Shown: in pieces, positions 15,605 to 52,960 of the stretch | How the letters are laid out: each line of letters opens with the position of its first letter | How positions within the stretch are numbered: position 1 is the stretch's first letter | Virus record (IMG/VR): IMGVR_UViG_3300032300_000577 | Coordinates: 1,420-65,419 of that record | Length of the DNA stretch: 64,000 nt | From: a virus | Direction: 5' to 3' (one strand) | The notes under the pieces: generated by a model | Seen by the model: the letters and a program-made list of their open reading frames with translations, nothing else | The model's database searches: none | Told to the model about the DNA's origin: nothing | Position numbers and translations under genes: made by a program

Positions 15605-18600
15605 TTAAACTTGTTGTCCACCCATAACTCCAGGACTTCTAGCTGCTCCTTCTCCTGTTGTTGCTTGATCATATCTTGCTAATTGTTCACCAGCTTGTTT
15701 CATAACATTACTGGCCAATGCTGGTCCTAGATTGTTCATTACTTCTGCGCCATTAAGGGTAATATTAACTCCTAGCTGCTCACTAGTTAATCTAATTTCA
15801 GTTGGAATATTAACTTCTGCTAATTTGGTCAATAAAGTATCCAACTTACTAGCAAAAGCTTCAAACCCATTGTTGGATAATACACCAGCCCCTTGGTTTT
15901 GTGATGCTTGTCCTTGAGGAGTACGAGGTGCTGCTACTGGAGCACCCATTGGAGCAGATGCTTGTGGTGCTGCTGATGAGCCTGATGACCCCGAAGTTGC
16001 TGCTGTTCCAGGAGGTTGATTATTTTGAGCAGCGGCTTGTGTTGGGTTAGGATTCTCTAATAGTCTTGATCCTAATTTCTGCTTCATCTTTTCACGGGTC
16101 TCTTCATTAAAGCCACTTAAATATTGTTGTTGTTTTTGATATCTACTTTGCTCATATTGTTTTCTCTTCTGTTCTCTAATTTCATTATAAGACATTGGTC
16201 CTTGACGCTGTGGCTGACTTGGGGCAGTTTGACTACCAGCATTATTTGCTGTAGCTGCATTTGTGGCAGCTGCATTATTTTGCTCTGCAGCTTTTCTTTC
16301 AGCATCAAGATTTGCTTTAGACTGTTGTGATGCGTCAACTGCGTTAGCTGGTGGAGTGAAAACTGCTTGAGCTTGAGACGCTCCATAAACTGTTGGTGCT
16401 GGAGTAGCCGCTCCTGTTGTTTGTGGTGTTGTTCGTGTTGGTGCTGCTGGTTGTCCTGTTGCTGTCGCAGGTAGCGGAGCAGCGGCTTGTTGGCCTGTTC
16501 CTGTTGCTGGTACTGGAGCAGCAGCTTGTTGACCATTTGCTGCGCCTTGCGCTCCGGTAGCCTGTTGTGGTTTTGGAGGAGTTGCTGCAGGAGGTGGCTG
16601 GGTACCTTCGGCCATTTCTTGTAATTTTTGCTTGCGCTTATTAAATTCTTCTTCTGTTTCTCCACTTAGTTTATGGTCATCATAGGTCATTGTACTAGCT
16701 GAGGCTGATAAATTCTTTCTACCCTTTGCGTCTCCTGAGAAAACAGCATTTTCTTGTTGTGCTGCCAACATAGTTCTTTTAGCTTCTTCTTTTTCATCTG
16801 CTGTAGCCGTACCAGAACTTAGTATTTTTTGTGCTTCTGCTATTTTTCCTTCATTCTCAGCTTTCCTAGCTTTTACTTCTTCTTCTCCTAATGGAGCTTT
16901 ACCTTGAGGAGCCCCTTGTTTTCCAGCTTCTCCTGGTGGGGTTATGCCAATCTGTTTACCTTCAGCAACTGCTACTCTTACAGCTTCTGCTCCTGCTATC
17001 ATAGCAGCTAATACGGCTGCTCCCGTTTTTGTGGTTAGGGCTTCTGCCTCTTGAGCTATTAATTCTTTTGCAGCGTCGTTAGCTGCTTGAAGAGCTGCCT
17101 GTTGTCCATTTAAAGCGTCTTTTAGTGCTGCTACTTTAGGATCTTCGCCCGGCCCCTTCTTCATCATATCAATATAATCTTTCATGCTCTTATCACCAAT
17201 CATCATCTTTGAAGTATCTTGTCCTCTAGCAGCAAACATACTTTCATAAACACTACCCATCATCTTGGACTGAGCGGTTGGATCAACAGCCCCTAATAAT
17301 GGAGCTAATTCTTTTGCCATATCAATGGTGTCGCCACTTTCCTTAGCATATGCTTCTTGAGCCGATCTTTGGGCTTGCATATGACTACCGCCCTGTCTTC
17401 TAACCTGATTATAGGCAGTATTAGCAGAATAAGACTCTTGGAAACTAACACCCTTACCAGATAGTGTTTTATTCAAATTATTGAATGTATTTCCCATCTT
17501 CCTAAGATCTTTTGGAGTTGATGTTAGCATCTTTTCCATCAAGCCACCAGCAGCAGCAAGTTTAGCAGCTCGTTCTTGCATAACATCTTGTAACTCTTGC
17601 ATGATTCCACCAATGTTCTCTTTAATATCATTTGGTAGATTCATGATTTCATCACGAGCCTGTTGTGTAGCCTGAGCAAATTCAGCAGTAGTATTGGCAG
17701 CGGTCTGCATAGCATTTGACGCTGCTTTAATTTGATTTTCATCTCCACTTAATAATGTTGGTCTATTAGCTTCGGTAATTTGTTGTTGTGCTGTTGCTGC
17801 GGTTCCTGTGGCTTTATTTAACTGATTATATCTATTTAACATAGCTTGGGGACTAGCTGCAACTTGAGCACTAGTTCCTAATCTTGTTGCTCTAGCCTGA
17901 TTTCTAACGCCAGCATCAGCTTGATACGAAATCTTTTCTCCAGTAGCTCTCTTAAAAGCTAGTGTACTATTAGCAACTGTAGAATACGTATCAGCATCTC
18001 TATTACGAATTTCCTGACCCTTGCCAGCTGATTTTTGAGCAGCATCTCCCATCATACCAATTGCTTTTCCCGCACTTGCTGCTTGTGCTTGTAAAGCTGC
18101 AAATACCTCTTTAGAAGAAGCCATCTTATTTGCTAATTCTGGTACTGCTTTAATTAAATCATTAAAATTTACCTGAGTAATATCTCCTTTAAATCCTTCT
18201 AAAAAGGTGTTTATTTCTTTGGTCATACCAGAAGCAATCTCTGGACCAAAAGCTTGTTCAACAGTGCCTAACATAGCTTTCTTAACAGCTGCTCTTGCAG
18301 AGTTATCGTCTCCACCCTGTGCTTTTACTTCCTGCATAGCCATACCAAAGTTTTGTTCTAGTTTACGAGGAAGCATTGCCGATTGAACCATAGCTTCAGA
18401 GCTTGATCCTGCCATAGAAGAATTTTGACGAAGAGCACCTTCAACATCATTCATTGAATATGCTTCTGGATTAGATAGAATATCTGCTGATTGTGATATT
18501 TGTCCTTGTTGTACTGCTGCCATTGGATTATCAACAGCATCAATTCCCAGTTTACCATTTTCCATTACTTTGTCTGCTCTAGCAGCAGCAGCACTTAAAG

Positions 18601-21600
18601 CATTAGCCATCTTCTCAAACGAGACTGTAACTTTTTGCATTGCTCTTGATAGTTTTTCGTTTTCTTTTGCATTCTTGATGGCTTCTTCTTTGACTTTTAA
18701 TTCGGCCATTCCTCTTTGTATAGCAGCTTGATAGGCTTCTTCGTATTTTTTACTACCTTTAGAGGATGTTTCTTTTACTTTTTGAAATTCAACGTCAGTA
18801 TCTGCTATACTACTTGCCATAGCGTTCCATTGTTCAGGTTTCATTGAAGCTCGAACTTGATCTAACGTTTTACCACTACGTTCCATTTCTGCTGCTAAGA
18901 AATTAGTGTTGGCATCAGATGCGTCTTGAGCAGAATCTGCTCTTTCTTGTGCTGTTTTACGAGGTTTGCTGGAGAACATCCCAGTTTTTTGTAAGCCTGA
19001 TGTTTGTTCTTGAGCAGAGAGTTCTGTCATTGCCATGGTTGACTGAAGAGCTTCGTCTCTTGCCCTATTTCTGGTTTCGACAGAGACCTCCTTATTTCCC
19101 ATTACTCCAAGCTTTTGTCCAAACCTCTTGCTCTGCCTACCCATTTTATCTCGACGTTGCTCATCTTCAAATTGTTTGCCTATTTCTCCGCTGTTCATGT
19201 AGGCATATCCGGCTCCTGCGGCAGCTCCTAATCCGGCACCAACAGCACCTCCAACCACAGTTCCAACGCCGGGAACAACAGACCCTATCATACTACCCAT
19301 CATCAGCCCAGTGCTAGCACCAGCTACTATACTTCCTCCGTAGTTAGAAGCTTGTCTTCCTTCTAAGGTTTTTTCTCCTCCTAAGCCTTTTGCATATTGC
19401 TCAACAGCAGCACTACCAGCCATCGATACTGCCATTTGTCCCATATAACCACCCATACCACCCATACCGCCACCGCCCCTACTAGAAACAGGAGCGGCTG
19501 GAGCAGCTGCTCTGCCAACACGACCTCTTCGTCCGCGACGACCACCTGGACCACCACTACCGGAACCACCGCCATCCATAGGTCCGACAGGTACGATAGG
19601 TCCAGCACCTCCGACTGAGTTATTATCTAATTTATCCATAGTTCGGTTCATTTTTGCGCGAGCTAATATTCCCTCAGACCCACCCTTTCTAATGGCATCT
19701 GTGCCAGCTCCACCCTTACCAAACCCAGCATCTATTAACGCTTGTTTCTTTGATTTTCCTGCTGCTGTTTTTTCTCTTTTTTCAAAATCTGAATTTATTT
19801 CTGGTATTTGGTCTTTTGCACTATGGAACATGGCTTTACTTTTACTTCCTCTTCCAAATGCTCCATCATAATCTTCTTTAGTAATCCTCCCTGACTTTAG
19901 TGCTGTCTGAGCCTGTCCCTTTGTCATTCCTGCTAATTTTCCTTGTGTTGCAACTACTGTTCTTTGTAATCCTACAAAATTAGCCATTAATCCAGTAACA
20001 CCCCCTCCAATTTTTGCAAAGCCTGCTCCAAGTGAAGCAAACATAGTCGAAAAATTTGCTTTTCCAAAAGATGCTGCAAAATTACCAACAGATAATGAAG
20101 CTGAGCCTAGAGCTTTGCTAAAATTCCCCGATAATTGAGTACTCGCAGCAGCCAAAAGAGATCCTTGATTATTTTTATTTTTAGCAGAAAATTTTAAAGT
20201 GTCTAATTGTCCTTGTCCTTGTGCTGTTTTTATTCTTCCATAACTTTGCATTGCTGGAGAAAATCCTGCAGAATTAGCCTTTCTACTATCAAGTCTTTCT
20301 AAACTTTTTTGTTTAGCTACTATTCTAGCTTGAGCTTCTGCTGCATCTCTATCTTGAATATCTTGACCTACTTTTGTAGCAGCATTTGACTCTATAATTC
20401 TTTGGCCGGTTTTTTTCTCATCAAGTATAATATCTTTTCTTTCTTGAGTTGCATCTGCTCCAACAATACCAGATTTTCTTTGCCTACGATTTGATCTTTG
20501 TTGTGCAACGTGTTCTTCTACGGTAAGTCCACCAACATCTTTTGGCTCTAAGGGAGCGTTTATTCTCTTGCCCTTGCCGTTTCCATGAAATAATCCTGGA
20601 GCAGCTTTTCTTTCTACTGCCTCTCTACCTGTTGCAGACATAGGACTATGATGAGACGGCGTTGGTCCAGTCTCCACATATCCGGGCAGTCTTTTCCCTG
20701 TTTTTTGAAAATATGCTTCTCTTTTTTCTGCTAATGTTTTAGACACTGCTGTAGCAGTAATTGCTTGAGGAGCACTGGTTGGTGTAGCAGAAAGAGATCC
20801 TGTTCTGGCAGTGGTCGGATCGCTAGACATGATATTAGTAACTTCTTTGATCCTAGCATTACTTTTTGCTTTTATTTTATTATTTTGAGCTAAGCCTGCT
20901 GCGGAACCTCTATTGTCAAAGAATTCTCTTTCTCTCTGTGATACTTCTTTGGGTATAACTCTTCCAGTTTTGACTTGTTCTTTTTTCTGTGTTTCTCTTT
21001 GAATAATAGCATTAGATGCTGTAAATCTTTCTTGTTTTTTTCTAATCTCAGCTAATTTTGTATGACTTTTAGTTTTCTTAGCTTTATCTTCTAAATATGC
21101 TCCATAGTCCACGTATCCTCTTTGTGTAGCTCCTTGATTTCTTTGTTCTACATAGTTTTGAGCTTCAGATAAAACAGTAGATTTTACACCGGGGGTTGTT
21201 ATTCCGAAAGTCGTATTATTTTTTTTAGCTTCATTAGCATAATATTTCATACCACTAATATAACCTTTAGGTTTTTGTGGTTTTCCTTTATTTTCTACTC
21301 TCTCTTTTGCAGTAGCTACTCTGCCTAGTCTGTCTCTTTCATCAAGATCTTTTTGGTTTTGTACTACTCTTTGACTACCGGCAATAACATCTTCTAGGTC
21401 ACTATTAGATATAGGAACACCCATTTTAGTTCTTACTGCTTGATTAGCCTGTTTCTTGGCTTTGCTTGTTGCTTTTGATATTTCTTTTTTGTCTGTCATA
21501 TTCCTAATACCAAGCTTATCCTTGCTCTTTTCAAATGCTTCGTTGTGAGTTGTTGTTATGATAGATGCTGCTTCGTGACTAGCTTTCAAAGAACCGACAG

Positions 21601-24600
21601 GAGCTTTGGATCCATTTTTCATTTGTAACTGCCTAACAACCTCAGGTTTAACTCCCTGATATAAATTAGTGGCTAAATTTTTACTTGCTCCTTCTACTGG
21701 TTGGGACTTATTGTATGGAACAAATTTTTCTCCAGAACTTGTGGTATGTGATTTCTTATCCCATGTTCTGTTTTCATAGTGTGGATTAATACCGGTTTTA
21801 TTTGGATCCCCAGTTGCTGCACGATTAACATAGTTAGCTGTTGCGACCTCTTTGGTTTTATCATATCTTGCCATACCTGAGAATGGTACATTGCGGGATC
21901 TTTCTTCTCCAAACCTTAAAGCTGCCTCGGCTACTACTGAAGAAGCAAGAGGTCCTCTCTTATTAGCTTGATTATTTTTATCTACAATAGTACGAGAATT
22001 TGCTCCTAAACTATCCATAGAACTTCCAGCTGCATTCAACCCCAATATTAATTTACCAAAAGATTGTTGTAATCTTGGAGAAACTTTACCTAATATATTT
22101 TCTATTCCGAGTATTGTTTTTTCCAGCCTTCCTAAGCCAAGATCACTTGTTGCTTTCTGTAGCACAACGTCTCCACCCCTAGCCAACTTTTGTACACTTC
22201 CACCACTCGCAAATTTTTGAACCATGCCTCCGGTGTGATACTTAGGAAGCTTATCTAAAGTATTACTAGCAACCTTACCACCCCTATTTAATTTTTTAAG
22301 AGTGTGCTCTCCAATTTGACCGGTAGCATGTTTATTAAGAACAAATTCACCCTTTTGGGCCATGATCGGAATTTCATCGGGAGCAGAAAGAGGAGAACTA
22401 GTTCCTCTGGAAAATCTCTGAATTAATCCACCAATAGCTGCTTTTTGTAATCTTTTACTTGTAACAGTACGTATAGGCTTGGGAGAAATGATACCACTAT
22501 CAACCATACTTTCCATTGTTGGCTTACTATCTATACCATAACCATAAATAGAAGGATATCTTTTTCCTAGTCTCTCCAATGTTCTGTGGTGAGACATACC
22601 AATAGAGCCTTTGAGCTTGGTCTTTTCGGATCTTAGTTTATCAACAATCTCTGCAATATCTGGATGTTCTTTTTTATATGCTGCAGATAGTCTCGATGGG
22701 TACTGGCTTAATTGTTTGTCAATAGCGGCTATTTTAGCTAATGCTCGTTTTTCAGCTTTTTCGTATAGCCTAGGGGTTATCTTTTCTCTATTTCTTATAC
22801 CAGAGGCTGCCCCTTTGACTATTTCTGTTGCGTTTGGATGTAATCCAGTAAAATTTCCTTGAGATATTTCTTTTCTTGTATTAGTACCAGATTCTGGTGT
22901 TCTAGGAACTGTAACAGTTTGTAATCCTGCCTTATCATAAGCCGATAAATTCTTGTCTTCATCCCCAACATATGCTTTACTTCCTTTCCCTGGTCTTACA
23001 AAATGTCTTCGGCCATTATTTTTTTGAACCTCATAAATTTCTGGTAGAGTAAAGCCTTTTCCAGCAGCACTAACATAAGCATCTGGTACCGACGCTTCTG
23101 CAATCTTCATTCTTAGTTTTTGACTATATCCAGCCGTTCGTAATGAGTGAGAATCTTTAGGATCATATCCCTCGTTTGATCCTACAACTATTATTTTTTT
23201 TTGTTTTGCATTATCTATTAATCCTTCAATGTGTCCTTTTTTAGTCATGGGAGCATATGCTCCTCTAAACATATCAACATCTTCTGTGCTTACAAGAGGT
23301 AGTTCATCTGCTCTTTTTCTTCTTTTCTTAAATCCTGGCATTAATCCTAATGTAATTAATTTTTTCTTTTCTATACCCATAGAAAGCATAGCTTCTAATT
23401 CACCACTATCTTGTGCAGCTATCGTGTGGGTTCTTCCGTACTGTTTTTCCCCTGTATTTGTTCTATGTTTTAGTTGACGTTTAAGAATTTTTAATTCTTC
23501 TTTTGTACTACTAGATAAAGCCACTACTCTATCCGAATGCTTGGCTATTTCAAGTTTTTCTAAACTCATGCTAGCTGTAGTATCTCTAACCTCAGATAGG
23601 CCAGAAAAATCTTCTGGTGTTTCTATAAAAGATCTTATGGTTTTTCTAAGTTTAGCATTATCAGATATTGCTGTTCTGGCATTTCCCTCAGCAAAAGAAC
23701 TTTTACCAGCACCGGGCGATCCAGCAATTGTAACTAATTTTTTAAGAGATCCTTCTGTTCTTTTGTCGATGGCTGTTTTACTTAATAATTTTTTATATCC
23801 ATCAACATCATAAGTATCTTTATCTGCATTATGAAAACCAAGTTCCCTCATGGCCTTTCTGGCTCTTTCACTATTTCTTAATTGATCACTATCCAATATT
23901 CCCATTTTTCTAACAAGCGGACCCTTAGTTCCACCAGCAAAAAACTGGTATGGTTGGGGAGATATTTTTCCTCCTCCAGATCTTCTCATTCCAGCTACAA
24001 GTATTCGTCTTTCAAAAGGACTTGGTGTTGGAGTATATTGTGGATCTGGACTCAGTGACTTAAGTGGTTCAGCTATCCTTCTTTGATTTTCGGTGGTTGT
24101 TGCTGGCTGCGTTTTTAAAGATTCTGTTAATTGTGCAACATTAGTTTTCATACCAAGTTTATTTGATTGTTCTTTTTGTATTTTTTCTATGTATTGTTGA
24201 GTTTCTGTCTGTGACAATCTATTAGTTTTAACAAAATTTTCAATTTCAGAATATTTCCATTTTGGAAGACCGCTTTTATCTAGCAAATCATAAAATCCAG
24301 TGCCTAATTTATTAGATGGACCGGTAGATAGTGGGCTTTGGCCAACATTTTCTGAAGGTACTAGTTTACTTGGTGATCTTGATACTTTTCCAGCATTAGC
24401 TAATCTTTGTACTTGTCCACCTAGTGCTTTTCTTGATCTCCTAAGTTTTTTATCTCTTAAAAACCTACCCATCTGAGCAGTTTTATTTTCTTCGGTATTA
24501 ACGGTAACATCTGTTGGGATACCTTCTTTTACTCCAAACAATCCTGCTACTCCTGATCCTTTGGGTAGATCCATAGGAGTATTAATTTTACCGGTTGGAT

Positions 24601-27600
24601 AAAAACTTCTACTATCTGCTGCCGCAACAGCTGACTCAAACATTTGTCCTAATCCACCACCTTGAAAAGTTTTCTTAATAATTGCATTAAGAGCTTTCCT
24701 GTCTGAAACTGCTGGTGTTCCTGCTCTTTCTGCTAATACTGCTGCCATCTGAGCTACAGTTTCTCTATATCCTTTTCTTGCTATAGCTTCTAATCTTTTA
24801 CTTAAAAATCCTGATAATACTCCCTTCTGAACGGTAATATCTTTTGATTTAAAAGCTCCTTTTGTTTTAGTTTTTGGTAAATCAGGAGTAGCATCTTGGG
24901 AAATACCAGATGGTCCTCTTAATCCCAATACTCCGAATTCTCTTGTTGATGCTAATCTTTTAGACTTAGCTTTTTTAGCTTTTTTAGAAGCTGTAACTTT
25001 ACCATACTCCGCCATTAATTTCTGAAAGCTTGGCCCACTTGGATTTTTAGCTCCTAATACTTTTCGAGCATCTTCTCCTCCTATAAGAGCATCAATAGAT
25101 CTCATATCGGGAAATTTAGTTAATAGTGTTTTTAATAGAGATGCTCTTCCTGGAAAAGCTAATGGTTTATCAGTTCCACCAGATAGTCTTTGTATTAGAC
25201 CTCCAATAGCATGATAACGATGGCGTCCTCCTCTTTGGGTAACAACTCTTAAGTCTCCTTTTTCTGCCCGGTCTTGCATTTCTTCGGTCCATCTTTTCCT
25301 AACTTCAGATGTTGTTCTTCTTGTCTTTGTTCCTTTTTTAGCAGCTTCAAGGGCGGCCTTTTCTCTTCGTTCTTTGCCTTTTTTTGGATCTGTATAAACA
25401 ACTTCTTTAATCTGCGCAAAAGCTCTTTTAAGAGCAGGATTATCTGCAGCATCAATTATAGATTTACCAAGTGGATATAATTGTTTGTCTGAGACGATTG
25501 GATAGTTTAGGTTATTAGCAGATGCAATTAATGCATTTTTAAGAGTCTGTAATACTTTTGGGTCAGATAATGCTGCATATGCTGCGCTTTTTCTCCCTCC
25601 TCTAAATGTACCTGCGCCAGTTCTAACTTCCTTACCGTTTCTAGATATTTGTAATTGTTGTGAAAATAACTGTTCAGGATCTGTGCCTGCTATAGCAGCA
25701 ATCAATTCTTCTTTTGAGATATTTGCTTTTCCTATTGTTCCATCAGCATTTCTATGTTTTAGCTCTTGGTTCCATTTTGCAGCCTTTCCTCCTAGTGTTA
25801 TACCGATATTTGTTAATCCTCTTCCTTTTCTGCTACCAGGACCAAATAAATTTTTGATAATTGGACCAGGATCAAGATGCATGAATACTCCACCACTAGC
25901 ATTAGTTTTACCAACTTTAATTGGCTTAACTTCTCCAGCCTCAGCCATTCTTTGTCTTTGAATTTGTCCACCATTAGCAAGAGCCATCTCAGGAAAAGCT
26001 TTTCTTACAGATTGTCTTTTAACAACAACCGAGCCTACTGGAAGAGTAGTTTTAAAGTTATCTCCTCGTCCACTACCAGGAACCATGAATACTCCGCCTC
26101 CTTCGGCCAACTTTAAATTATCTGGTTTCTTTCCGGTGCGATTTAAACTGAGGATTGGTCCGGCACCACCAGCTCTTTTAACTGCTTGTTTGCCGCTAAA
26201 AACCATCTCTCCAGCCTCTAGCGCTACAGGAACTCCTCCCTCGGAAAATCTTTGAATCTTTCCTCCATTAGCAAAACCTCTTGGAGCGCCACTCATTCGG
26301 TCTCCTGCTCCGGCTCCTCTTCCTCCACCGCCCCCCCTTATACCACCCATAAAACCACCAGCAAATCTGAATGCTCCTATCGTTCCTTTTACTGCCAACA
26401 ATGCTGTAATTGCTGGTAGTGCATGTTTAGCAGAATCGGCAACTGAGATAAAAGCACTAGCTAAATTAAGAGCCAACTTGACCATGGTTTGAAATTCGTT
26501 GCTACTACCAATTTTACGAACTAAAGAAATAAATTCTTCTTGTACTTTAGTCATTTGAACAGCAAGAGCTTGTTGAGCTTTAGCAGCATCACTACTTAAA
26601 GACCCCTGTCCTCTTTGGGCGACACCTAAAGCTTTTTCTGCTGTTGCAAATTGCTGTAGCAAAGGAATAACTTTACCTACCTGTCGGAACCCACCAAGTT
26701 CTTCAATGATGGAGGAGAATCTAATGTCTCTGGTATCTAATCCTGCTAATCCCTGACTTAATCTTTTAACAGCTTCATATGGTCCAACAAACTTGCCTTC
26801 GAGGTCTGTTAATTGTATTCCAAATTGTTTAAGAATATCAATAGTTTCTCTTCTTTGAAGTCTGGTAAAAATTGTTCTTAAACCAGTAGCAATTGTTTCT
26901 GCACTTTCACGAGTAGTAGCTCGAATACTAGTAAAGACTGCAATAAATTCATTCAATGCTTGTGTGCCTTCACTAACACCCTTACTAGATGCAGCAAACA
27001 CACCACCGGTACGCTGAATAGCAGTAATAATATCTCCGGCTTCAACAGCAAACTTAGCAGCAACAGCATTAATAGAACCAAGAGCACCATCTAATTGGTC
27101 TGTAGAGATAGAGAATTGTCTCATAAGAGCAATACTACCTTCAACAGTACTATTTAAATCATTAAACGATGGAGCTAATGTACTCTTTGCTAAAGCTCTT
27201 AAAGCCTGTTCTGTTTCTTTTGCTGACAAACCAGCCTGAGCTAATGTACTAGAAACATCTATTAACGAACTAGATGAAACACCCAAACTTGTTGATAATA
27301 ACGTAATTTCTCTTTCTAATCCAGCTAACCCAGGAAGAGATGTTCCTGTAACTTGAGATAGCTGAACCATTTGCTTATTAAACTTCATAAACTCATCTGA
27401 TGCCGCACTAATAGCTCTGGTGAATTTATATATGATTCCGGTTACTAGTGTAAACGCAGCAAATCTACGAATAGCTAGTGCTGACTGTCTTCCAAAATCT
27501 GCCATAGAGTTGCCAGATTGTTGTATTGTTTGTGCTGTTCTAATTTGTTGTTTTTGTAATTGTTGTGATTGTTGGGTTACTGCTGACATAGTTCTGGGCA

Positions 27601-27862
27601 AAGAACTCATATTAGCAGAACCAACAGAAGCCCCAAATCTTTTCATAGCATCAGCAGCACTAGCTGCTGAAACTACAGTATTCTTAAGATTAGCATTTAG
27701 GTTTTGTAATGATTTTGATGACGACGCAAGATTCGCAGTATTAATGTTAATATTAATGTTGGGATTAATACTACTTAATTGTTTGCGAATATTGGAAATA
27801 ACGGGCTTAAGATTAGCCGGACCCGATATGTTTAATTGTGCAGTAAGGTTGAATGATGCCAT
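15605..27862 (-). CDS. Giant tail tape measure protein (TP901-family core) with internal cargo domains
   Basis: 4085 aa; N-terminal TMP core (LAQAGLS...INAVAAKFAV...RESAETIATGLRTIFTRL); Ala/Gln/Lys-rich helical C-terminal half; position after tail tube and chaperones. Confidence 0.9.
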   Translation of the reverse strand: MASFNLTAQLNISGPANLKPVISNIRKQLSSINPNINININTANLASSSKSLQNLNANLKNTVVSAASAADAMKRFGASVGSANMSSLPRTMSAVTQQSQQLQKQQIRTAQTIQQSGNSMADFGRQSALAIRRFAAFTLVTGIIYKFTRAISAASDEFMKFNKQMVQLSQVTGTSLPGLAGLEREITLLSTSLGVSSSSLIDVSSTLAQAGLSAKETEQALRALAKSTLAPSFNDLNSTVEGSIALMRQFSISTDQLDGALGSINAVAAKFAVEAGDIITAIQRTGGVFAASSKGVSEGTQALNEFIAVFTSIRATTRESAETIATGLRTIFTRLQRRETIDILKQFGIQLTDLEGKFVGPYEAVKRLSQGLAGLDTRDIRFSSIIEELGGFRQVGKVIPLLQQFATAEKALGVAQRGQGSLSSDAAKAQQALAVQMTKVQEEFISLVRKIGSSNEFQTMVKLALNLASAFISVADSAKHALPAITALLAVKGTIGAFRFAGGFMGGIRGGGGGRGAGAGDRMSGAPRGFANGGKIQRFSEGGVPVALEAGEMVFSGKQAVKRAGGAGPILSLNRTGKKPDNLKLAEGGGVFMVPGSGRGDNFKTTLPVGSVVVKRQSVRKAFPEMALANGGQIQRQRMAEAGEVKPIKVGKTNASGGVFMHLDPGPIIKNLFGPGSRKGRGLTNIGITLGGKAAKWNQELKHRNADGTIGKANISKEELIAAIAGTDPEQLFSQQLQISRNGKEVRTGAGTFRGGRKSAAYAALSDPKVLQTLKNALIASANNLNYPIVSDKQLYPLGKSIIDAADNPALKRAFAQIKEVVYTDPKKGKERREKAALEAAKKGTKTRRTTSEVRKRWTEEMQDRAEKGDLRVVTQRGGRHRYHAIGGLIQRLSGGTDKPLAFPGRASLLKTLLTKFPDMRSIDALIGGEDARKVLGAKNPSGPSFQKLMAEYGKVTASKKAKKAKSKRLASTREFGVLGLRGPSGISQDATPDLPKTKTKGAFKSKDITVQKGVLSGFLSKRLEAIARKGYRETVAQMAAVLAERAGTPAVSDRKALNAIIKKTFQGGGLGQMFESAVAAADSRSFYPTGKINTPMDLPKGSGVAGLFGVKEGIPTDVTVNTEENKTAQMGRFLRDKKLRRSRKALGGQVQRLANAGKVSRSPSKLVPSENVGQSPLSTGPSNKLGTGFYDLLDKSGLPKWKYSEIENFVKTNRLSQTETQQYIEKIQKEQSNKLGMKTNVAQLTESLKTQPATTTENQRRIAEPLKSLSPDPQYTPTPSPFERRILVAGMRRSGGGKISPQPYQFFAGGTKGPLVRKMGILDSDQLRNSERARKAMRELGFHNADKDTYDVDGYKKLLSKTAIDKRTEGSLKKLVTIAGSPGAGKSSFAEGNARTAISDNAKLRKTIRSFIETPEDFSGLSEVRDTTASMSLEKLEIAKHSDRVVALSSSTKEELKILKRQLKHRTNTGEKQYGRTHTIAAQDSGELEAMLSMGIEKKKLITLGLMPGFKKRRKRADELPLVSTEDVDMFRGAYAPMTKKGHIEGLIDNAKQKKIIVVGSNEGYDPKDSHSLRTAGYSQKLRMKIAEASVPDAYVSAAGKGFTLPEIYEVQKNNGRRHFVRPGKGSKAYVGDEDKNLSAYDKAGLQTVTVPRTPESGTNTRKEISQGNFTGLHPNATEIVKGAASGIRNREKITPRLYEKAEKRALAKIAAIDKQLSQYPSRLSAAYKKEHPDIAEIVDKLRSEKTKLKGSIGMSHHRTLERLGKRYPSIYGYGIDSKPTMESMVDSGIISPKPIRTVTSKRLQKAAIGGLIQRFSRGTSSPLSAPDEIPIMAQKGEFVLNKHATGQIGEHTLKKLNRGGKVASNTLDKLPKYHTGGMVQKFASGGSVQKLARGGDVVLQKATSDLGLGRLEKTILGIENILGKVSPRLQQSFGKLILGLNAAGSSMDSLGANSRTIVDKNNQANKRGPLASSVVAEAALRFGEERSRNVPFSGMARYDKTKEVATANYVNRAATGDPNKTGINPHYENRTWDKKSHTTSSGEKFVPYNKSQPVEGASKNLATNLYQGVKPEVVRQLQMKNGSKAPVGSLKASHEAASIITTTHNEAFEKSKDKLGIRNMTDKKEISKATSKAKKQANQAVRTKMGVPISNSDLEDVIAGSQRVVQNQKDLDERDRLGRVATAKERVENKGKPQKPKGYISGMKYYANEAKKNNTTFGITTPGVKSTVLSEAQNYVEQRNQGATQRGYVDYGAYLEDKAKKTKSHTKLAEIRKKQERFTASNAIIQRETQKKEQVKTGRVIPKEVSQREREFFDNRGSAAGLAQNNKIKAKSNARIKEVTNIMSSDPTTARTGSLSATPTSAPQAITATAVSKTLAEKREAYFQKTGKRLPGYVETGPTPSHHSPMSATGREAVERKAAPGLFHGNGKGKRINAPLEPKDVGGLTVEEHVAQQRSNRRQRKSGIVGADATQERKDIILDEKKTGQRIIESNAATKVGQDIQDRDAAEAQARIVAKQKSLERLDSRKANSAGFSPAMQSYGRIKTAQGQGQLDTLKFSAKNKNNQGSLLAAASTQLSGNFSKALGSASLSVGNFAASFGKANFSTMFASLGAGFAKIGGGVTGLMANFVGLQRTVVATQGKLAGMTKGQAQTALKSGRITKEDYDGAFGRGSKSKAMFHSAKDQIPEINSDFEKREKTAAGKSKKQALIDAGFGKGGAGTDAIRKGGSEGILARAKMNRTMDKLDNNSVGGAGPIVPVGPMDGGGSGSGGPGGRRGRRGRVGRAAAPAAPVSSRGGGGMGGMGGYMGQMAVSMAGSAAVEQYAKGLGGEKTLEGRQASNYGGSIVAGASTGLMMGSMIGSVVPGVGTVVGGAVGAGLGAAAGAGYAYMNSGEIGKQFEDEQRRDKMGRQSKRFGQKLGVMGNKEVSVETRNRARDEALQSTMAMTELSAQEQTSGLQKTGMFSSKPRKTAQERADSAQDASDANTNFLAAEMERSGKTLDQVRASMKPEQWNAMASSIADTDVEFQKVKETSSKGSKKYEEAYQAAIQRGMAELKVKEEAIKNAKENEKLSRAMQKVTVSFEKMANALSAAAARADKVMENGKLGIDAVDNPMAAVQQGQISQSADILSNPEAYSMNDVEGALRQNSSMAGSSSEAMVQSAMLPRKLEQNFGMAMQEVKAQGGDDNSARAAVKKAMLGTVEQAFGPEIASGMTKEINTFLEGFKGDITQVNFNDLIKAVPELANKMASSKEVFAALQAQAASAGKAIGMMGDAAQKSAGKGQEIRNRDADTYSTVANSTLAFKRATGEKISYQADAGVRNQARATRLGTSAQVAASPQAMLNRYNQLNKATGTAATAQQQITEANRPTLLSGDENQIKAASNAMQTAANTTAEFAQATQQARDEIMNLPNDIKENIGGIMQELQDVMQERAAKLAAAGGLMEKMLTSTPKDLRKMGNTFNNLNKTLSGKGVSFQESYSANTAYNQVRRQGGSHMQAQRSAQEAYAKESGDTIDMAKELAPLLGAVDPTAQSKMMGSVYESMFAARGQDTSKMMIGDKSMKDYIDMMKKGPGEDPKVAALKDALNGQQAALQAANDAAKELIAQEAEALTTKTGAAVLAAMIAGAEAVRVAVAEGKQIGITPPGEAGKQGAPQGKAPLGEEEVKARKAENEGKIAEAQKILSSGTATADEKEEAKRTMLAAQQENAVFSGDAKGRKNLSASASTMTYDDHKLSGETEEEFNKRKQKLQEMAEGTQPPPAATPPKPQQATGAQGAANGQQAAAPVPATGTGQQAAAPLPATATGQPAAPTRTTPQTTGAATPAPTVYGASQAQAVFTPPANAVDASQQSKANLDAERKAAEQNNAAATNAATANNAGSQTAPSQPQRQGPMSYNEIREQKRKQYEQSRYQKQQQYLSGFNEETREKMKQKLGSRLLENPNPTQAAAQNNQPPGTAATSGSSGSSAAPQASAPMGAPVAAPRTPQGQASQNQGAGVLSNNGFEAFASKLDTLLTKLAEVNIPTEIRLTSEQLGVNITLNGAEVMNNLGPALASNVMKQAGEQLARYDQATTGEGAARSPGVMGGQQV

Positions 27863-33783: not shown

Positions 33784-34698
33784 CTAGGATACACCGATAA
33801 AGACACCATCATTCTGTTTGTCGTATCTTTTAAAAAAGTTGTCATATTGTCTTAAATAGGTCCAATTTATAACAACAGAGTCATCGTGCATAATAGAGTA
33901 AATATAACCGAATAATATACCTTTGTTGGATTTAGAATAACAGTAGTTATTATAGCATTTATATATTGGGTATTTTTTTTTGTGATCTCTATTATATATC
34001 TTTAAATACGGTTTAGTTTTTGTGAAAGAAATTAATAGTTTCTCATTAGAGATAATTTTACCAAATATTCTTTCTAATGCATGACAGTAGGTTCCGTTGT
34101 ATGCGTCTGTTACTTTTCCTGTTTCTAATAAAGGGTATATTTTTGAGATAAGTTCTGTTGTAAAGTATTTTTTAAAAATTTTTGTTCTAGACATAAACAT
34201 GCTTCCAGCCATAAATCTTTTATCTGTTGTTTTAATCTTGAGCAAAAGAGAAAGAAGGGCTATGTGTTTTTTGTTATGTCCTACAGACTTCATAATTGTG
34301 GTTTGGTCTGTTATTGATCCGATCATACTATCTTTATTTAGCACCTCTATATTTTTTAGTAAAATATCTTTAGACCCTATTAAACAATTAAAAAGAACGT
34401 GCTTCCATTCAAACTTATTAATTAGAGATTTTTTACTATGTAGTTTAATAAAATATGGATATTCTTCCTGATCAAGATCTTGTAGTTGTAGTAGAAAAGG
34501 TCCTATATCAACCCCTTTGTTTTCTACATATCTAGTTTTTATAAGACTAAAGTCTTTAAGATCTTCTTCTATTTTTAGATTATTATTATCTTTACACAAT
34601 GCTATGTCTATTTTTATATATTCTTTAAGAGGCAATAGTAAAGGATATAGTTCGTCCCAAACTTCTGTGTGATATATATAAATTAGTACTGCTATCAT
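33784..34698 (-). CDS. Rhamnan synthesis protein F (RgpF)-like / glycosyltransferase-associated protein
   Basis: YIYHTEVW, VENKGVDIGPFL, KLHSKKS, FMAGSMF and HALERIF motifs typical of the RgpF family; ATG at 34698 preferred over the track start 34722. Confidence 0.75.
   Translation of the reverse strand: MIAVLIYIYHTEVWDELYPLLLPLKEYIKIDIALCKDNNNLKIEEDLKDFSLIKTRYVENKGVDIGPFLLQLQDLDQEEYPYFIKLHSKKSLINKFEWKHVLFNCLIGSKDILLKNIEVLNKDSMIGSITDQTTIMKSVGHNKKHIALLSLLLKIKTTDKRFMAGSMFMSRTKIFKKYFTTELISKIYPLLETGKVTDAYNGTYCHALERIFGKIISNEKLLISFTKTKPYLKIYNRDHKKKYPIYKCYNNYCYSKSNKGILFGYIYSIMHDDSVVINWTYLRQYDNFFKRYDKQNDGVFIGVS
33789..33795 (-). promoter_or_regulatory. Putative late promoter (GGTGTAT)
   Basis: 37 nt upstream of 33752, within the last codons of the RgpF-like gene. 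Confidence 0.5.
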
Positions 34699-34699
34699 C

Positions 34700-34903
34700 C
34701 TATACTTTTTTTGTTTCAACAACTTGTTTTTCTGCTTGTAAAGAAATTTCAGTCGTTGTGGGTCTTGGAATATAGTCTATTTTAGAACCGTCAGATATGG
34801 TAATTACTTTATTGATAGTATCTGCATTAGTTAATGTATTATAAAAACCTAATTCTGTTGATACTTCATTGAATTCTATATTTATGCTGTTTATTTTTAT
34901 CAT
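34700..34903 (-). CDS. Small hypothetical protein
   Basis: Fills the gap between two operon genes; ATG at 34903. Confidence 0.5.
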   Translation of the reverse strand: MIKINSINIEFNEVSTELGFYNTLTNADTINKVITISDGSKIDYIPRPTTTEISLQAEKQVVETKKV

Positions 34904-39283: not shown

Positions 39284-41560
39284 TTATGTAACAATATATC
39301 TAATTACAACAATGCCAGAACCACCGCGCGACCCAGTCCCAGAACCGCCCCTGCCAAGATTTGCTGGGGCGTTTGTTCCCCCACTCTGGTCAACGCCGTT
39401 ACCACCCGCACCGTAAGTAGTGCCAAAGACAACTCTACCGGCACCGGCTCCGCCGCCCGGAACACCTGCGTCACACGGTGGCGTTGACCCGGCTCCGCCA
39501 GCACCTCCTCCGCCTCCTCCATAATAAGGACACTCGTCCCTTACGGTGTCACCGGCCCCTCCGGGATTTCCAGTAGTGTTTGACGTTGAGGTAGGAAAGC
39601 CAGATGTTCCGCCATTTACCCAGCTTTGTACGCCGCCCGCTCCGCCTGTTGCGGTGTATGACGCGCCCAATGACGACGAGCCAGCGTTTGTGTTGGGATT
39701 TACACTAACAGCAACCGTCACAACATGAGACCCAGCATTAAGAGTCTGGCCGGTTTGATATAGAACACCTCCGCCTCCGCCACCCGATCTACCGCCACCT
39801 CCGCCTCCACCAACCACAAGAACGTCTGCGGTCAGCGAAGATCCGGAAATGCTAAGAGTATCGCTGCTGGTAAATGTGTGATATGTATAACCGTCGCCGG
39901 GAGTCGTAACAGTACCTCCTGTAACCACAGCCATTGCGCTGGGTGTAACATTACTACTCGCTGTATACGTCCCTGTGCCCGAATCACTCACCGCCGCCAC
40001 TCTCACAGCATAAGAAATGCCGTTGGTCAATCCTGTCAAAGTATAGGTAGTTGCTGTACTGCTGGTGTTGACAGTCTGAGCAGAGCCTCCGGATGGTGTG
40101 TATTCCACTATGTAGCCTGTGATCGCATAAGTACCGGGTGCAGACGGGGCGGTCCACGTAAGAGAGGCTTGCGTCTGACTTGGGGTTACAGTCAAACTAG
40201 TTGGCGCATTGGGTGGGGTTCCGACTATTGGTGTAACACTGCTACTTGCCACAGTATAAGCACCTAGACCTATGTCGTTCACTGCTGCAACGCGAAATAC
40301 ATATGCTGTCCCGTTGGTCAGTCCTGTGATCGTCCCACTTGTTGCTGTAGATGAGGCCGACGAAAACATCGTCCATGTTGATCCATTATTGTCGCTGTAT
40401 TGCTCTCGATAATCCGTAATCGGTGCCTGAACGATCACTCCAGTAGGTGCTGTCCATGACAGTGATGCCTTGCCATTACCTCTGGTCACAGAGAGACCTG
40501 TTGGAGCGGATGGCAGAAACAAATTCCACCTAGTATCATTGTTAGTTACAATAGCTGTTGTTCCGCTAATAGAAACATTGATTCCACTTCCAGCAATTAT
40601 ATTAGTAATTGACAACAAACCGCTAACACTACTATTAAAATTAGTAATATCACTAACAGTATGAGAGTGTCCACTAACGCTAACATTAACATTATTAAGT
40701 TGTAAATTATTACTAAAATTACCACTAGTAGCATTAATATTACCGACTACATGAAGTTTGCTTGAGGGTGATGATGTTCCTATTCCTAAATTACCAGCTA
40801 CTGAAATATTACCAGAACTTGGAAAATAAAAACCGGTTGTTAAATCATTGGATGAACTGATAGCTGGATATCCTGATGAGCCGGGAGCTATTCCATTTAA
40901 AGTTGCCACCGCTGTTGTTCCATAACCAACTCCCCAGAAAGTTAAACCGCTAGCTGGAGCTTCAGTAAAAACTATATTAGATCCGCTAATACTATATGAC
41001 GAGATTGGTTCTTGAGCAACTCCGCCCACATAAATTCCCAAAGTATTAGCACTAACTGGATAATACGGTGTTCCGCTAAATGCTAATCCGAATGATGTAG
41101 ACGATCCGTTAAAAGATGAACTTATATTGTCTAGTTTCGTATAATTAGAAGAAGATACTGAAGATACCAAACTGACATATTCTAAGACTGTTCCAGATGG
41201 GACACTGTTACTTAAGGTTACTGAAGTTCCATCAGTTGCAGTAAAATCACTACCACCTAATAATTTAACGCCGTTTTGAAATAAATCTAAATAACCAGGG
41301 GAGTAACCTTCACTAACATTAAAAGAAGATAGTGTTCCAGTTGTACTAATAGATCCTCTAACTCCAACAGACGAAGATGATCCTCCAACACTAGTTGATC
41401 CTATTCCACTAAGTGCCACCCAATTAGAAAATCCGTTACCTATCTTAAGAATACTATTAGTTAAATCATATCCTGGCTCACCACTAGCTAATACTGGATT
41501 AGCTGATATCCATTCTGAAGCTATTCCTTTGCGAAATGTAATAAGATCATTTACGGCCAT
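39284..41560 (-). CDS. Fibre protein: Mtd_N-like domain, two fibronectin type III domains, glycine-rich C-terminal domain
   Basis: FRKG...W...NPVLASGEPGYD...KIGNG; PSAPTGL...LSWTAP...GLTNGTAYVFRVAAVN (x2); LVVGGGGGGG...GGSGIVVIRY. Confidence 0.85.
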   Translation of the reverse strand: MAVNDLITFRKGIASEWISANPVLASGEPGYDLTNSILKIGNGFSNWVALSGIGSTSVGGSSSSVGVRGSISTTGTLSSFNVSEGYSPGYLDLFQNGVKLLGGSDFTATDGTSVTLSNSVPSGTVLEYVSLVSSVSSSNYTKLDNISSSFNGSSTSFGLAFSGTPYYPVSANTLGIYVGGVAQEPISSYSISGSNIVFTEAPASGLTFWGVGYGTTAVATLNGIAPGSSGYPAISSSNDLTTGFYFPSSGNISVAGNLGIGTSSPSSKLHVVGNINATSGNFSNNLQLNNVNVSVSGHSHTVSDITNFNSSVSGLLSITNIIAGSGINVSISGTTAIVTNNDTRWNLFLPSAPTGLSVTRGNGKASLSWTAPTGVIVQAPITDYREQYSDNNGSTWTMFSSASSTATSGTITGLTNGTAYVFRVAAVNDIGLGAYTVASSSVTPIVGTPPNAPTSLTVTPSQTQASLTWTAPSAPGTYAITGYIVEYTPSGGSAQTVNTSSTATTYTLTGLTNGISYAVRVAAVSDSGTGTYTASSNVTPSAMAVVTGGTVTTPGDGYTYHTFTSSDTLSISGSSLTADVLVVGGGGGGGRSGGGGGGVLYQTGQTLNAGSHVVTVAVSVNPNTNAGSSSLGASYTATGGAGGVQSWVNGGTSGFPTSTSNTTGNPGGAGDTVRDECPYYGGGGGGAGGAGSTPPCDAGVPGGGAGAGRVVFGTTYGAGGNGVDQSGGTNAPANLGRGGSGTGSRGGSGIVVIRYIVT

Positions 41561-44156: not shown

Positions 44157-44621
44157 TTAAATTGGATCACTATAAATATTACTTAAGAAAGTTTGAGCTA
44201 TTCTAATATTATCAAATTCATTTTCAGCAACAGTATCAGTATGGATATTACTCAAAAAAGTTTGTCCTATTCTTATATTATCAAATTCACTATCAGCAAC
44301 AAGATCAGTATGAATATTGCTCAAGAAAGCCTGACCTATACTTAATGGGCTGATCGGTGGTCCCATAGGCGTGGACGTTGGAGTCGGAGTAGTTGCTATG
44401 GTACTAGAAGTTGGAGTATTAGTTGGCGTGGGTGTAGCTGGTATAGTACTAGAAGTAGGAGTATTGGTTATGGTGGTTGTCGGAGTAGTAGTGGGGGTCT
44501 GTGTGGGTGTGATTGCTACTGAACTGGCACTTGGAGTTGGTGTTATTGTGTCTGTAACAGAAATAGGAGGTTTGACTTTAACAATACCTTCTATAACTCT
44601 TACTTTATTGTTATTAATCAT
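44157..44621 (-). CDS. Thr/Pro-rich protein with 23-aa C-terminal tandem repeats
   Basis: Translation. Confidence 0.65.
   Translation of the reverse strand: MINNNKVRVIEGIVKVKPPISVTDTITPTPSASSVAITPTQTPTTTPTTTITNTPTSSTIPATPTPTNTPTSSTIATTPTPTSTPMGPPISPLSIGQAFLSNIHTDLVADSEFDNIRIGQTFLSNIHTDTVAENEFDNIRIAQTFLSNIYSDPI
44160..44340. repeat. 69-bp tandem repeat, ~2.6 copies (IGQxFLSNIHTDxVAxxEFDNIR)
   Basis: Repeated tcaaattca...cagcaaca..atcagtatg.atatt. Confidence 0.85.
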
Positions 44622-46792
44622 TATGGTGTTCCGCCGTCTATAATAAAGTATTTAAGCTCTGTTGCGGGTGTTGTATTTGATGAGCCTAATAACTGATTAG
44701 TAGAAGCATCAAATCTTAAGTTATTATTAACACTAGGTTTAAGGTTGCCGTTTGTACCATTAACAAATACAAGATTATTTACGTTACTTGTACTAAGATC
44801 AACTTCAACATTATTAGCATTAGTAGCTGTTCCACTTAGATCTCCAACAAATGATGTGCTAGAGACACTAGTTAGTCCTGATACAGCAGTTGTCGTACTA
44901 CCCAAGCTAACTGATGTTGAACCAATTGTAAAAGAACTATTAACTAATTGAGAATTATCAACACCACTAGCTTTGATACTAACAGATCCGGAAGAAACAC
45001 TAAAGTCTCCACTGTCAAAACTAGCTACTCCCTTAGCAGAAGTTGTAGCGTCTTGTACTGAAGCTGTTGTTACTCCTGTTACTCGACCATAAGAGTCTCT
45101 TGTAACACTCTGTACAAAAGTAGTACCAGCCGAACCGCTACCATCTGTTTGAGACACAGTATCAAGATCAATATTATCAGCATTAACAACTATGCGACCA
45201 GCCGTACCAACAGCATCTATAGTATTACCGTTCTTTGTTAAACCAGCACCAGTAGTTATTTGACCAGCGCCAGAGAATTGAGCAAATGCTAGGCTAGTTG
45301 TTCCAAGAGTGATAGTATCATTAGTAGTTAGTACCCAGCCACTATCAGCATTAACAGTACCTTCAGATACGAAAGTAAATAATCCGGTAGTAACTTTAGC
45401 GTTAGAGTCGGAATCAGATGCTCTGCTCCAAGACCCAACAGCAACATCATAGATACCATTTTGACTACCCGTAGTCTGGTTCTTTACTAATACTCTATCA
45501 CCAGCTACAACAGTAACACCGTCAATAGTTTGTGTTCCAGATAACGTTATGTTCACTGTTGTTGCAACTCTGGCGCTTTGTTTAACGTCAAGACCCATTC
45601 GTGCAGCATCGACATATGCTTTTGTAGCAGCATCTTGAGCACTAGCTGGGTCTGCCAAGCTAGTAATTTTGACACTATTGAATGACACATCTCCTGTAGG
45701 AACAGCCATTTGATCTAAACGATTTGTTCTTACGGCAGTATTAAAGTCGTTGATGTTACTAGCAACTAAACCGCTACCTCCAACAGTAAGATTGCCATTA
45801 ACAGTGACACCACTCATTGTAGGATTATTAGCAAATACCAGCGAGCCCGTTCCTGTTTCATTACTAACAAGAGTTGCAAGATTATCGCTACTTGGCGTTA
45901 ATAAAAAGTCTCTAGCATTAGCTGTTAGATCTGTAATCTCTGCTAGTTGAATAGTAGGGTCGCTTAGAGCAATAGTATAATTACCACTACTATGATTAAG
46001 GGAGATGCCACTTCCTGCTGTTAAAGAGCTACTAATGGTTAGAGTATTGTTTTCACTATTATATACAATACCAACACCACTACCAGCAACAATACTTGTA
46101 CTAACAGCATCTTCAATAAGATCATTAACACCGCTATTAAAGTTGGTAATTAAAGATGCTGGAATACCAGTTATACTAATAGTCTGATTTCCACTATTGT
46201 TTGAAATACCTATTCCACTACCTTGTACTAAGCTTTTAACTCCTAAAAGACCACTAACAGCACTATTAAAATCTGTAATATCTGTAGACTGTATTGTAGG
46301 ATCACTCAAACTAATAGTAGCTGTTTTTGCTGTGCTATTGTAATTGAAGGCTATTCCACTAACTCCAGTAATTGTAGAACCAATAACATCTTTAACAGAG
46401 TTACTGTCTAGTCCGCTTGTCGATATAATATATGAATTATCTCCAGAGACCGAAACGGAGATACCGCTTCCTGCTACTACATTTTTAACTGGTAATAGTC
46501 CGCTCACGGCACTATTGAAGTCGCTCAAATAACTTGAAGTTAATCCTGTAACAGATACTGTCATGGTTCCAGAAGTTGAGGCATATGATATGTTTATGCC
46601 ATTAGTTCCTGTAAAATCAGCTCCTGTAATATTTGCCCAAGGTAAACTTCCCCAAAGACTAGTGCCGTCACCTATCTTAAACTTTTTGATTGTTGTATCG
46701 TAACCAAGCTCTCCTTGAGCTAATGGGTTATTAGAAGAAGCCCATAAGGATGAGGATCCTCTTCTGAGCTGAATGGTAGTTAAAGCTGGCAT
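44621..46792 (-). CDS. Fibre protein with Mtd_N-like domain and internal FNSxVxxL...GSG repeats
   Basis: IQLRRG...W...LAQGELGYD...KIGDG; DAATKAYVD; IDG...GDRVLVKNQ domain. Confidence 0.8.
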   Translation of the reverse strand: MPALTTIQLRRGSSSLWASSNNPLAQGELGYDTTIKKFKIGDGTSLWGSLPWANITGADFTGTNGINISYASTSGTMTVSVTGLTSSYLSDFNSAVSGLLPVKNVVAGSGISVSVSGDNSYIISTSGLDSNSVKDVIGSTITGVSGIAFNYNSTAKTATISLSDPTIQSTDITDFNSAVSGLLGVKSLVQGSGIGISNNSGNQTISITGIPASLITNFNSGVNDLIEDAVSTSIVAGSGVGIVYNSENNTLTISSSLTAGSGISLNHSSGNYTIALSDPTIQLAEITDLTANARDFLLTPSSDNLATLVSNETGTGSLVFANNPTMSGVTVNGNLTVGGSGLVASNINDFNTAVRTNRLDQMAVPTGDVSFNSVKITSLADPASAQDAATKAYVDAARMGLDVKQSARVATTVNITLSGTQTIDGVTVVAGDRVLVKNQTTGSQNGIYDVAVGSWSRASDSDSNAKVTTGLFTFVSEGTVNADSGWVLTTNDTITLGTTSLAFAQFSGAGQITTGAGLTKNGNTIDAVGTAGRIVVNADNIDLDTVSQTDGSGSAGTTFVQSVTRDSYGRVTGVTTASVQDATTSAKGVASFDSGDFSVSSGSVSIKASGVDNSQLVNSSFTIGSTSVSLGSTTTAVSGLTSVSSTSFVGDLSGTATNANNVEVDLSTSNVNNLVFVNGTNGNLKPSVNNNLRFDASTNQLLGSSNTTPATELKYFIIDGGTP

Positions 46793-52953: not shown

Positions 52954-52960
52954 ATACACC
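52954..52960 (-). promoter_or_regulatory. Putative late promoter (GGTGTAT) for portal
   Basis: Recurring intergenic motif, 48 nt upstream of ATG. Confidence 0.6.

Follow-up and report, generated by a model that had tools for sequence, protein, structure and literature searches.

A conserved, probably catalytic kinase–nucleotidyltransferase cassette in giant phage tape measure proteins

The tape measure protein (TMP) gene of the virus record IMGVR_UViG_3300032300_000577, analyzed here over a stretch of 64,000 nucleotides (positions 1,420 to 65,419 of that record; hereafter the window), encodes a unit of about 470 amino acids (aa), at about aa 1311-1790, in which a P-loop kinase-like domain is followed by a nucleotidyltransferase (NTase) domain of the HIGH superfamily. 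On balance, we favor reading this unit as a bifunctional enzyme cassette of accessory and probably catalytic nature, carried within a giant TMP and delivered as cargo. It belongs to a family of ~470-aa cassettes, defined here, of which no fewer than 59 members are full-length; none of the models in Pfam, NCBIfam or PHROG covers this family.

The cassette and its host protein

A preliminary description of this DNA had placed a kinase and an NTase within a TMP at 22443-23930 on the minus strand, which corresponds to aa 1311-1807 of the protein. The host protein is indeed a TMP. Its open reading frame (ORF; 15605..27862, minus strand, as are all features of this protein given below) is uninterrupted, encodes 4085 aa and is the longest of the window. 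The product belongs to the PhageMin_Tail family (PF10145; 85.8 bits, cut-off 33.2), with the matching region at aa 189-378 (26729..27298), and it also matched two PHROGs annotated as ‘tail length tape measure protein’, namely phrog_4211 (7.8e-20) and phrog_167 (6.1e-11). The strand of the TMP gene also carries the large terminase gene (52960-54999) and several genes for virion proteins, while the genes immediately flanking it were without a family match.

For searches and modeling, aa 1311-1810 (22433..23932) were used as the whole cassette. The kinase-like domain spans aa 1316-1524 (23291..23917; about residues 6-214 of the model) and bears the Walker A motif GSPGAGKS at aa 1381-1388 (23699..23722). 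The NTase domain follows at aa 1525-1697 (22772..23290; model residues 215-387). Its (T)xGH motif, GAYAPMTKKGH, which has one extra residue (aa 1534-1544; 23231..23263), forms part of FRGAYAPMTKKGH (aa 1532-1544; 23231-23269), and its SxTxxR motif, ESGTNTR (aa 1657-1663; 22874..22894), is found within VPRTPESGTNTRKEI (aa 1652-1666; 22865-22909). GSPGAGKS, FRGAYAPMTKKGH and VPRTPESGTNTRKEI had all been reported previously, and correctly located. After the NTase comes a conserved basic helical hairpin at aa 1676-1773 (22544..22837; model helices 366-408 and 424-458).

Fold and family of the two domains

A single-sequence AlphaFold2 model of the cassette was not usable (predicted local distance difference test score, pLDDT, of 46.9). 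We therefore refer to the model of aa 1311-1810 built with a 16-sequence alignment (A1), which reached a pLDDT of 85.6 and a predicted template modeling score (pTM) of 0.77; the same alignment was employed in the search for free-standing copies and in the family scans of 16 members. In this model, the NTase half has the Rossmann-like NTase fold that had been anticipated from its motifs. Comparison of model residues 215-387 with 48,161 PDB representatives by VIA-align gave the archaeal nicotinamide mononucleotide adenylyltransferase (NMNAT) 1f9a (MJ0541) at 12.9, its root-mean-square deviation (rmsd) being 2.5 over 145 of 164 residues, as well as the NadM structures 2qjo and 2qjt (12.7 and 11.8), the NadD structure 4rpi (11.7), the phosphopantetheine adenylyltransferase (PPAT) 4nah (11.4) and the NadR structure 6gye (9.9). 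In line with this, Foldseek returned 21 PDB matches at E<=1e-3, with NMNAT and PPAT on top, and the BFVD matches were cytidylyltransferase-like proteins and phage NMNATs, the top one being named citrate lyase ligase. The cassette shares the (H/T)xGH and SxTxxR motifs with archaeal NMNAT, NadM, NadD and PPAT/CoaD; it differs from them in that identity is as low as 13-17%, that no curated model reaches its cut-off, and that the domain is fused to a kinase and sits in a structural protein.

Profile searches pointed to the same superfamily. Against PDB sequences, the family profile matched best the UPF0348 protein 3gmi (1.4e-5), although this match is limited to the 44 residues of the ISGTxxR region. 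It also matched 9x6f, the NMNAT domain of Bas30_86, with an E value of 4.3e-5 over 150 residues that include both motifs (GKFAPLTRGH and ISATxIR in Bas30_86). PF16581 was found in nine of the 16 members at E<=1 (best 1e-5) and exceeded its cut-off in one relative, P0011 (29.0 vs. 26.7 bits). The NMNAT models TIGR00482 (2/16 members) and PRK00071 (1/16) stayed under their cut-offs, with E values of 0.02-0.03. Taken with the structural matches, these results make membership of the NTase in the HIGH-signature superfamily firm. The domain is most like NMNAT and PPAT. The choice among NMNAT, PPAT and the adenylate-forming HIGH enzymes, that is TmcAL/UPF0348 (5y0n, 3gmi) and citrate lyase ligase (CitC), is left undecided by profiles and folds.

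The N-terminal domain can be assigned with moderate confidence to the P-loop kinases, with a zeta toxin (6epg_B) as the nearest solved fold. The Walker A motif and, apparently, a kinase-like fold are shared with P-loop kinases of the zeta toxin, AAA_33 and polynucleotide kinase (PNK) type, and all Atlas neighbors of this domain are AAA_33/Zeta_toxin (0.85-0.88). On the other hand, it scores below the Pfam cut-off and differs in its invariant DxD. A phmmer search of PDB sequences with the kinase part gave two chance-level matches (E values of 0.45 and 0.72), and the PHROGs yielded only sub-threshold P-loop matches on the window’s cassette.

Conservation of catalytic-type residues

Conservation was counted over 59 copies that span the whole cassette and are ~30-50% identical to the window’s copy. 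Fourteen positions of catalytic type were invariant (59/59): K1387 (within GK[ST]), H1544, S1658, R1663, four acidic residues (D1324, D1326, D1418 and D1444), R1368, R1467, R1477, R1575, R1584 and Y1642. At this level of divergence, such invariance indicates selection on the catalytic-type residues, and the cassette would be expected to be catalytically active. Conservation of the catalytic residues in homologues had been named beforehand as a point on which the enzyme assignment depended.

The Walker A motif conforms to GxxxxGK[ST], with GK[ST] in all copies and the first glycine in 57 of the 59. The consensus of the HIGH-type motif is G-x-[FY]-x-P-x-T-x-G-H, in agreement with (H/T)xGH: besides the invariant H1544, G1534 and P1538 are each conserved in 58/59 and T1540 in 55/59, where histidine is never found. 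TxGH is the PPAT form of this motif, and it also occurs in the aligned phage enzyme Bas30_86. The canonical spacing GxFxPxTxGH was observed in 52/59 copies, and the extra residue that had been noted in this motif occurs in the window’s copy (TKKGH) and five others (6/59); one further copy has a long insertion. In SxTxxR, serine and arginine are invariant and threonine is found in 57/59, and the motif aligns to ISGTxIR of 3gmi and ISATxIR of 9x6f.

Outside these motifs, the invariant DxD (D1324, D1326) lies 60 residues N-terminal of the P-loop, and the invariant pair R1467 and R1477 is located in the loop following a long helix, an arrangement reminiscent of kinase LID arginines. Two smaller elements of the preliminary description fared differently. 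The arginine of its ‘R-M’ corresponds to R1584, whereas its ‘VGD’ is not conserved, the aspartate position being lysine in 47/59 copies. The proposed kinase motif ‘DTT’ was dropped for the same reason (aspartate in 27/59).

Distribution and modularity in tape measure proteins

Relatives of the cassette were sought by phmmer with aa 1311-1810 against 1.84 billion protein cluster representatives (counts include the query itself). This search, in which the presence of the cassette in other TMPs was at issue, recovered 69 proteins at E<=1e-3, 62 at E<=1e-10 and 47 at E<=1e-30. As many as 51 of the 69 are 2,500 to 7,135 aa long, and an N-terminal PF10145 was present in 20 of the 23 cassette-bearing relatives scanned with Pfam. 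The remaining 18 proteins are shorter than 2,500 aa and their matches mostly run to the protein end, which fits fragments cut by contig ends. Judging from these searches, the detectable relatives are confined to giant TMPs. No free-standing relative was found among 8,000 candidates of 263-949 aa or 1,153 of 30-262 aa; this is weak evidence of absence, since the searches were word-indexed, and it nevertheless suggests that linkage to the TMP matters. Further, none of 50,697 records of cultured phages matched the cassette in a tblastn search, nor was anything found in IMG/VR with the window’s cassette and with the relative P0002, whose locus (L004) was recovered from a metagenome contig.

Within the family, the order of kinase, NTase and hairpin is constant, the kinase preceding the NTase in 59/59 copies, while the position of the cassette is not: in full-length TMPs it starts anywhere from ~aa 600 to 2140, with different neighbors. 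A direct comparison was provided by an identical pair of 5,741-aa TMPs (L002/L003), which were recovered with P0006 as the query. Over the first 576 aa of P0006 they are 76% identical to it, and they also match later parts of it, but lack P0006 aa 577-2631, which hold an ADP-ribosyltransferase (ART) module and the cassette; homology restarts exactly at GGLIQKF.

This sequence is one form of a junction motif, GG-x-[IV]-Q-[RK]-[FLQ], which occurs seven times in the window’s TMP (aa 533, 631, 887, 1148, 1811, 1878 and 1887). At aa 1811-1817 (22412..22432), GGLIQRF forms the downstream boundary of the cassette. Upstream, GGQVQRL (aa 1148-1154; 24401..24421) is the edge of a two-module stretch, of which aa 1160-1310 (23933..24385) constitute a separate module outside the enzyme cassette. 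This module, for which no family match was obtained, was detected by phmmer in 14 of 74 proteins and lies downstream of the cassette in P0005, P0006, P0019 and P0029. The first strand of the cassette begins, in the majority of relatives, with a similar motif, GG-x-[VA]-Q-R. The earlier notion of a motif-bounded cassette is thus essentially right, given the junction motifs at the cassette edges and the break in homology, but the upstream motif at aa 1148 bounds two modules rather than one. In these comparisons, the cassette moves, and is gained and lost, between junction motifs, which could be sites of recombination or processing.

ART-like modules were recognized in ~8 of the 74 proteins, including P0006 (aa 1401-1720 and 1872-2144), P0007, P0030, P0051, P0038 and P0074, and are directly upstream of the cassette in five; the ART model PF03496 was above its cut-off in P0006 and P0074. 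The window’s own TMP is devoid of an ART module, and the cassette is its sole recognized enzyme unit.

Comparison with known systems

Bas30_86 (PDB 9x6f/9x6h) is described in the accessible text of PMC13464706 as an enzyme of the phage NARP3 pathway that is NadR-like, with NMNAT and ribosylnicotinamide kinase (RNK) domains. Like NadR and Bas30_86, the cassette combines a HIGH-type NTase and a P-loop kinase in one phage-encoded polypeptide, and the profile match to Bas30_86 makes the previously drawn comparison with a NadR of reversed order an apt one. The differences are considerable: the kinase comes first in the cassette, in contrast to the NMNAT–RNK order of NadR; the kinase domains show no detectable sequence match (-3.4 bits for the RNK part of 9x6f); and the cassette is located inside a TMP instead of being a free cytoplasmic enzyme, has an extra helical hairpin and has no PnuC partner in the partial record.

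A different parallel is offered by the polyvalent injected phage proteins, which, according to the accessible text of PMC5512222, are large virion-associated proteins whose cargo comprises unrelated enzyme modules, including those of ART and zeta-like kinase type. TMPs of the present family that combine ART modules with the kinase–NTase cassette would, if delivered, resemble them in this respect. In that text, the word ‘tape’ does not appear and the only NTases mentioned are of the Pol-beta type; a survey of jumbo phages (PMC7824862) refers to the TMP, in its accessible text, only as a DNA conduit. A full-text literature search, with supplements outside its scope, found no description of a kinase–NTase cassette in a TMP. 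What is new is that the two domains are fused, confined to giant TMPs and modular by way of junction motifs; neither the folds nor the concept of enzymes injected as cargo is new.

Mycobacteriophage TMPs carry peptidoglycan-hydrolase motifs. The enzymatic inserts known from TMPs hydrolyze the cell wall, act outside the cytoplasm and need no ATP. An ATP-dependent kinase–NTase pair with strictly conserved catalytic-type residues, in contrast, makes sense in the cytoplasm only, and the ART modules beside the cassette in some relatives point likewise to this compartment. It follows that part of the TMP would enter the cell and refold there, and that metabolic or effector enzymes would be delivered through the tail lumen. 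The presence of the module in a TMP points to tail-borne delivery of a nucleotide-cofactor enzyme by these phages.

Proposed function and alternative readings

In the scheme that we propose, the kinase domain, of nucleoside/nucleotide-kinase type, would use ATP to phosphorylate a small nucleoside- or sugar-like compound, and the NTase would join a nucleoside monophosphate to a phosphate, or possibly to a carboxylate, giving a nucleoside diphosphate-linked product of NAD type. NadR, COASY and PAPSS are known pairs of a kinase and a HIGH-NTase, and the two steps would be coupled as in these enzymes. The cassette would be carried into the host cell by the ejected TMP, in the manner of injected polyvalent proteins, although newly made TMP could possibly also act late in infection. 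Since the cassette can be directly expressed and assayed, what a phage must synthesize in the first seconds of infection becomes a testable question.

Several observations weigh against a delivered, active enzyme. On the window’s own copy, every curated family falls short of its cut-off: the NTase part is without a Pfam match, PF01467 remains below its cut-off (2/16 members at E<=1, best 0.12; none in the record at E<=0.01), the NCBIfam matches are far under theirs, and Zeta_toxin (PF06414) scores 14.5-16.1 bits against a cut-off of 22.3, over the P-loop only. The sub-clade of the window’s copy also departs from the consensus, with the extra residue in TxGH, glutamate instead of isoleucine before SGT, L1464 (arginine in 45/59), T1468 (aspartate in 45/59) and D1634 (lysine in 47/59). 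A few members have a degenerate Walker A motif (AVAAAGKT twice, GAAANRKS, GAAGNRKT, and GAAASGKS twice), and two show the HIGH variant ..PAH. A related TMP, that of L002/L003, can dispense with the cassette. With regard to delivery, two folded domains of together ~50 kDa ought to be too large for the lumen of the tail tube, and therefore would have to be stored unfolded; entry of the N-terminal half of the TMP into the cytoplasm is itself an assumption. Finally, each virion probably holds only a few TMP copies, which makes it quantitatively doubtful that ejected protein alone could replenish NAD+ in bulk; so few enzyme molecules would be better matched to a low-copy target or a poisoning product.

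These points bear unequally on what the cassette might do. Conversion of nicotinamide riboside via nicotinamide mononucleotide to NAD+ is the leading single guess for the substrate, and even so an improbable one. A NadR-like enzyme of reversed order, made up of a ribosylnicotinamide-type kinase and an NMNAT, would rebuild NAD+ from ejection onward, or late in infection with the expression of the tail genes, and so counter NAD+-depleting defenses. The profile match to Bas30_86, which also has PLTRGH, and the NAD+-using ART modules directly upstream of the cassette in five relatives are consistent with such an enzyme. We nevertheless consider it unlikely, as the kinase domain lacks a sequence match to the RNK domains of NadR in the PDB set searched, no PnuC-like transporter was found in the 65-kb record (44% complete, and the window’s own record only), and a few TMP copies could hardly refill a millimolar pool against an NADase. 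A broader conjecture, which seems to us equally doubtful, holds that, in an uncultured lineage of large phages, giant TMPs carry injected enzymes as modules separated by GG-x-[IV]-Q-[RK]-F junctions. In this view, the cassette would travel in the virion as a NadR-like enzyme of reversed order that synthesizes NAD+ or a dinucleotide resembling it; it would act before phage gene expression and either feed the neighboring ART cargo or blunt NAD+-depleting or nucleotide-signaling immunity. Zeta toxins phosphorylate UDP-GlcNAc, and AvrRxo1 phosphorylates NAD. The cassette could accordingly be conceived as a host-poisoning effector, in which a zeta-toxin-like kinase acts on a nucleotide sugar or dinucleotide and weakens wall synthesis or metabolism at entry, with the NTase making or binding the nucleotide-linked substrate. 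Zeta_toxin is the best, though sub-threshold, Pfam match on the window’s copy, with which the Atlas neighbors agree, ART effector modules occur in related TMPs, and zeta-like kinases are fused to phage MuF virion proteins (accessible text of PMC5512222). The zeta assignment is, however, weak by every measure, PF06414 being found in just 1/16 members at E<=1, and strict coupling to an NTase domain is left without a reason, which makes this proposal quite improbable.

Both of these readings assume a small-molecule substrate. If the kinase were instead PNK-like and the NTase an adenylate-forming domain of TmcAL/CitC type, the two could act together with the basic hairpin on tRNA, RNA or the end of the incoming DNA, so as to repair it or to mask it from anticodon nucleases or exonucleases. 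This is the sense in which one may take 3gmi as the best PDB sequence match, the citrate lyase ligase on top of the BFVD matches, T4 PNK at Foldseek rank 44 (probability 0.33) and the median net charges of +8 and +7 of the kinase domain and the hairpin. Yet Z is higher and rmsd lower for NMNAT, and to our knowledge small NMNAT-like domains do not act on polynucleotides. The charge was discarded as a hint at a nucleic-acid substrate, being unspecific because the N-terminal ~2,800 aa of the TMP are equally basic, and overall we judge a nucleic-acid substrate very improbable. It is also conceivable that nothing happens after ejection, the cassette either working in the producing cell during TMP synthesis or being a non-catalytic domain for nucleotide binding or assembly that is kept for structure. 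The reliance of cytoplasmic delivery on indirect argument, the poor fit of a folded cassette in the tail lumen, the degenerate P-loops of some members and the loss of the cassette from a related TMP would all agree with this. Such inactivity is hard to reconcile with fourteen catalytic-type residues that are invariant at 30-50% identity, with ART modules that would make sense in the same proteins only if delivered, and with the link to TMPs implied by the lack of free-standing copies in our searches, and we regard it as distinctly unlikely.

Further modules of the tape measure protein and other genes of the record

Upstream of the module at aa 1160-1310, the window’s TMP contains two further motif-bounded modules without a family match, at aa 640-886 (25193-25945; in 5/74 related proteins) and aa 897-1147 (24413-25180; in 6/74). 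These three upstream modules may represent other cargo domains. A short motif, ..P..L..GE[FM]V.., follows several of the junction motifs (region 22223-22405, and at TMP aa ~545-560), and a module near aa 1820-1900 is present in 42/74 proteins. One relative, P0072 (4929 aa), has only the kinase-like part, at aa 2988-3172, far from its N-terminus.

The source record is a linear IMG/VR virus contig of 65,419 b with an estimated completeness of 44%, and its terminase shares just ~25% identity with the terminases of Bacillus siphophages in culture. A protein with an ERCC4-type nuclease domain is encoded next to the terminase gene and overlaps its start (54965-55444, minus strand). Genes related to sugar metabolism were also found, encoding a GDP-mannose 4,6-dehydratase (55700-56722, minus strand; 385 bits) and a GlmS-like glutamine-fructose-6-phosphate aminotransferase with SIS and GATase domains (58702-60528, plus strand; phrog_13807 at 6e-205), and an RgpF-like glycosyltransferase is encoded within the structural module (33784-34722, minus strand). 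Two large virion proteins (44621-46792 and 39284-41560, both minus strand) open with an Mtd_N domain, the N-terminus of the major tropism determinant, and are candidate receptor-binding proteins; one of them additionally has fn3 and glycine-rich domains.

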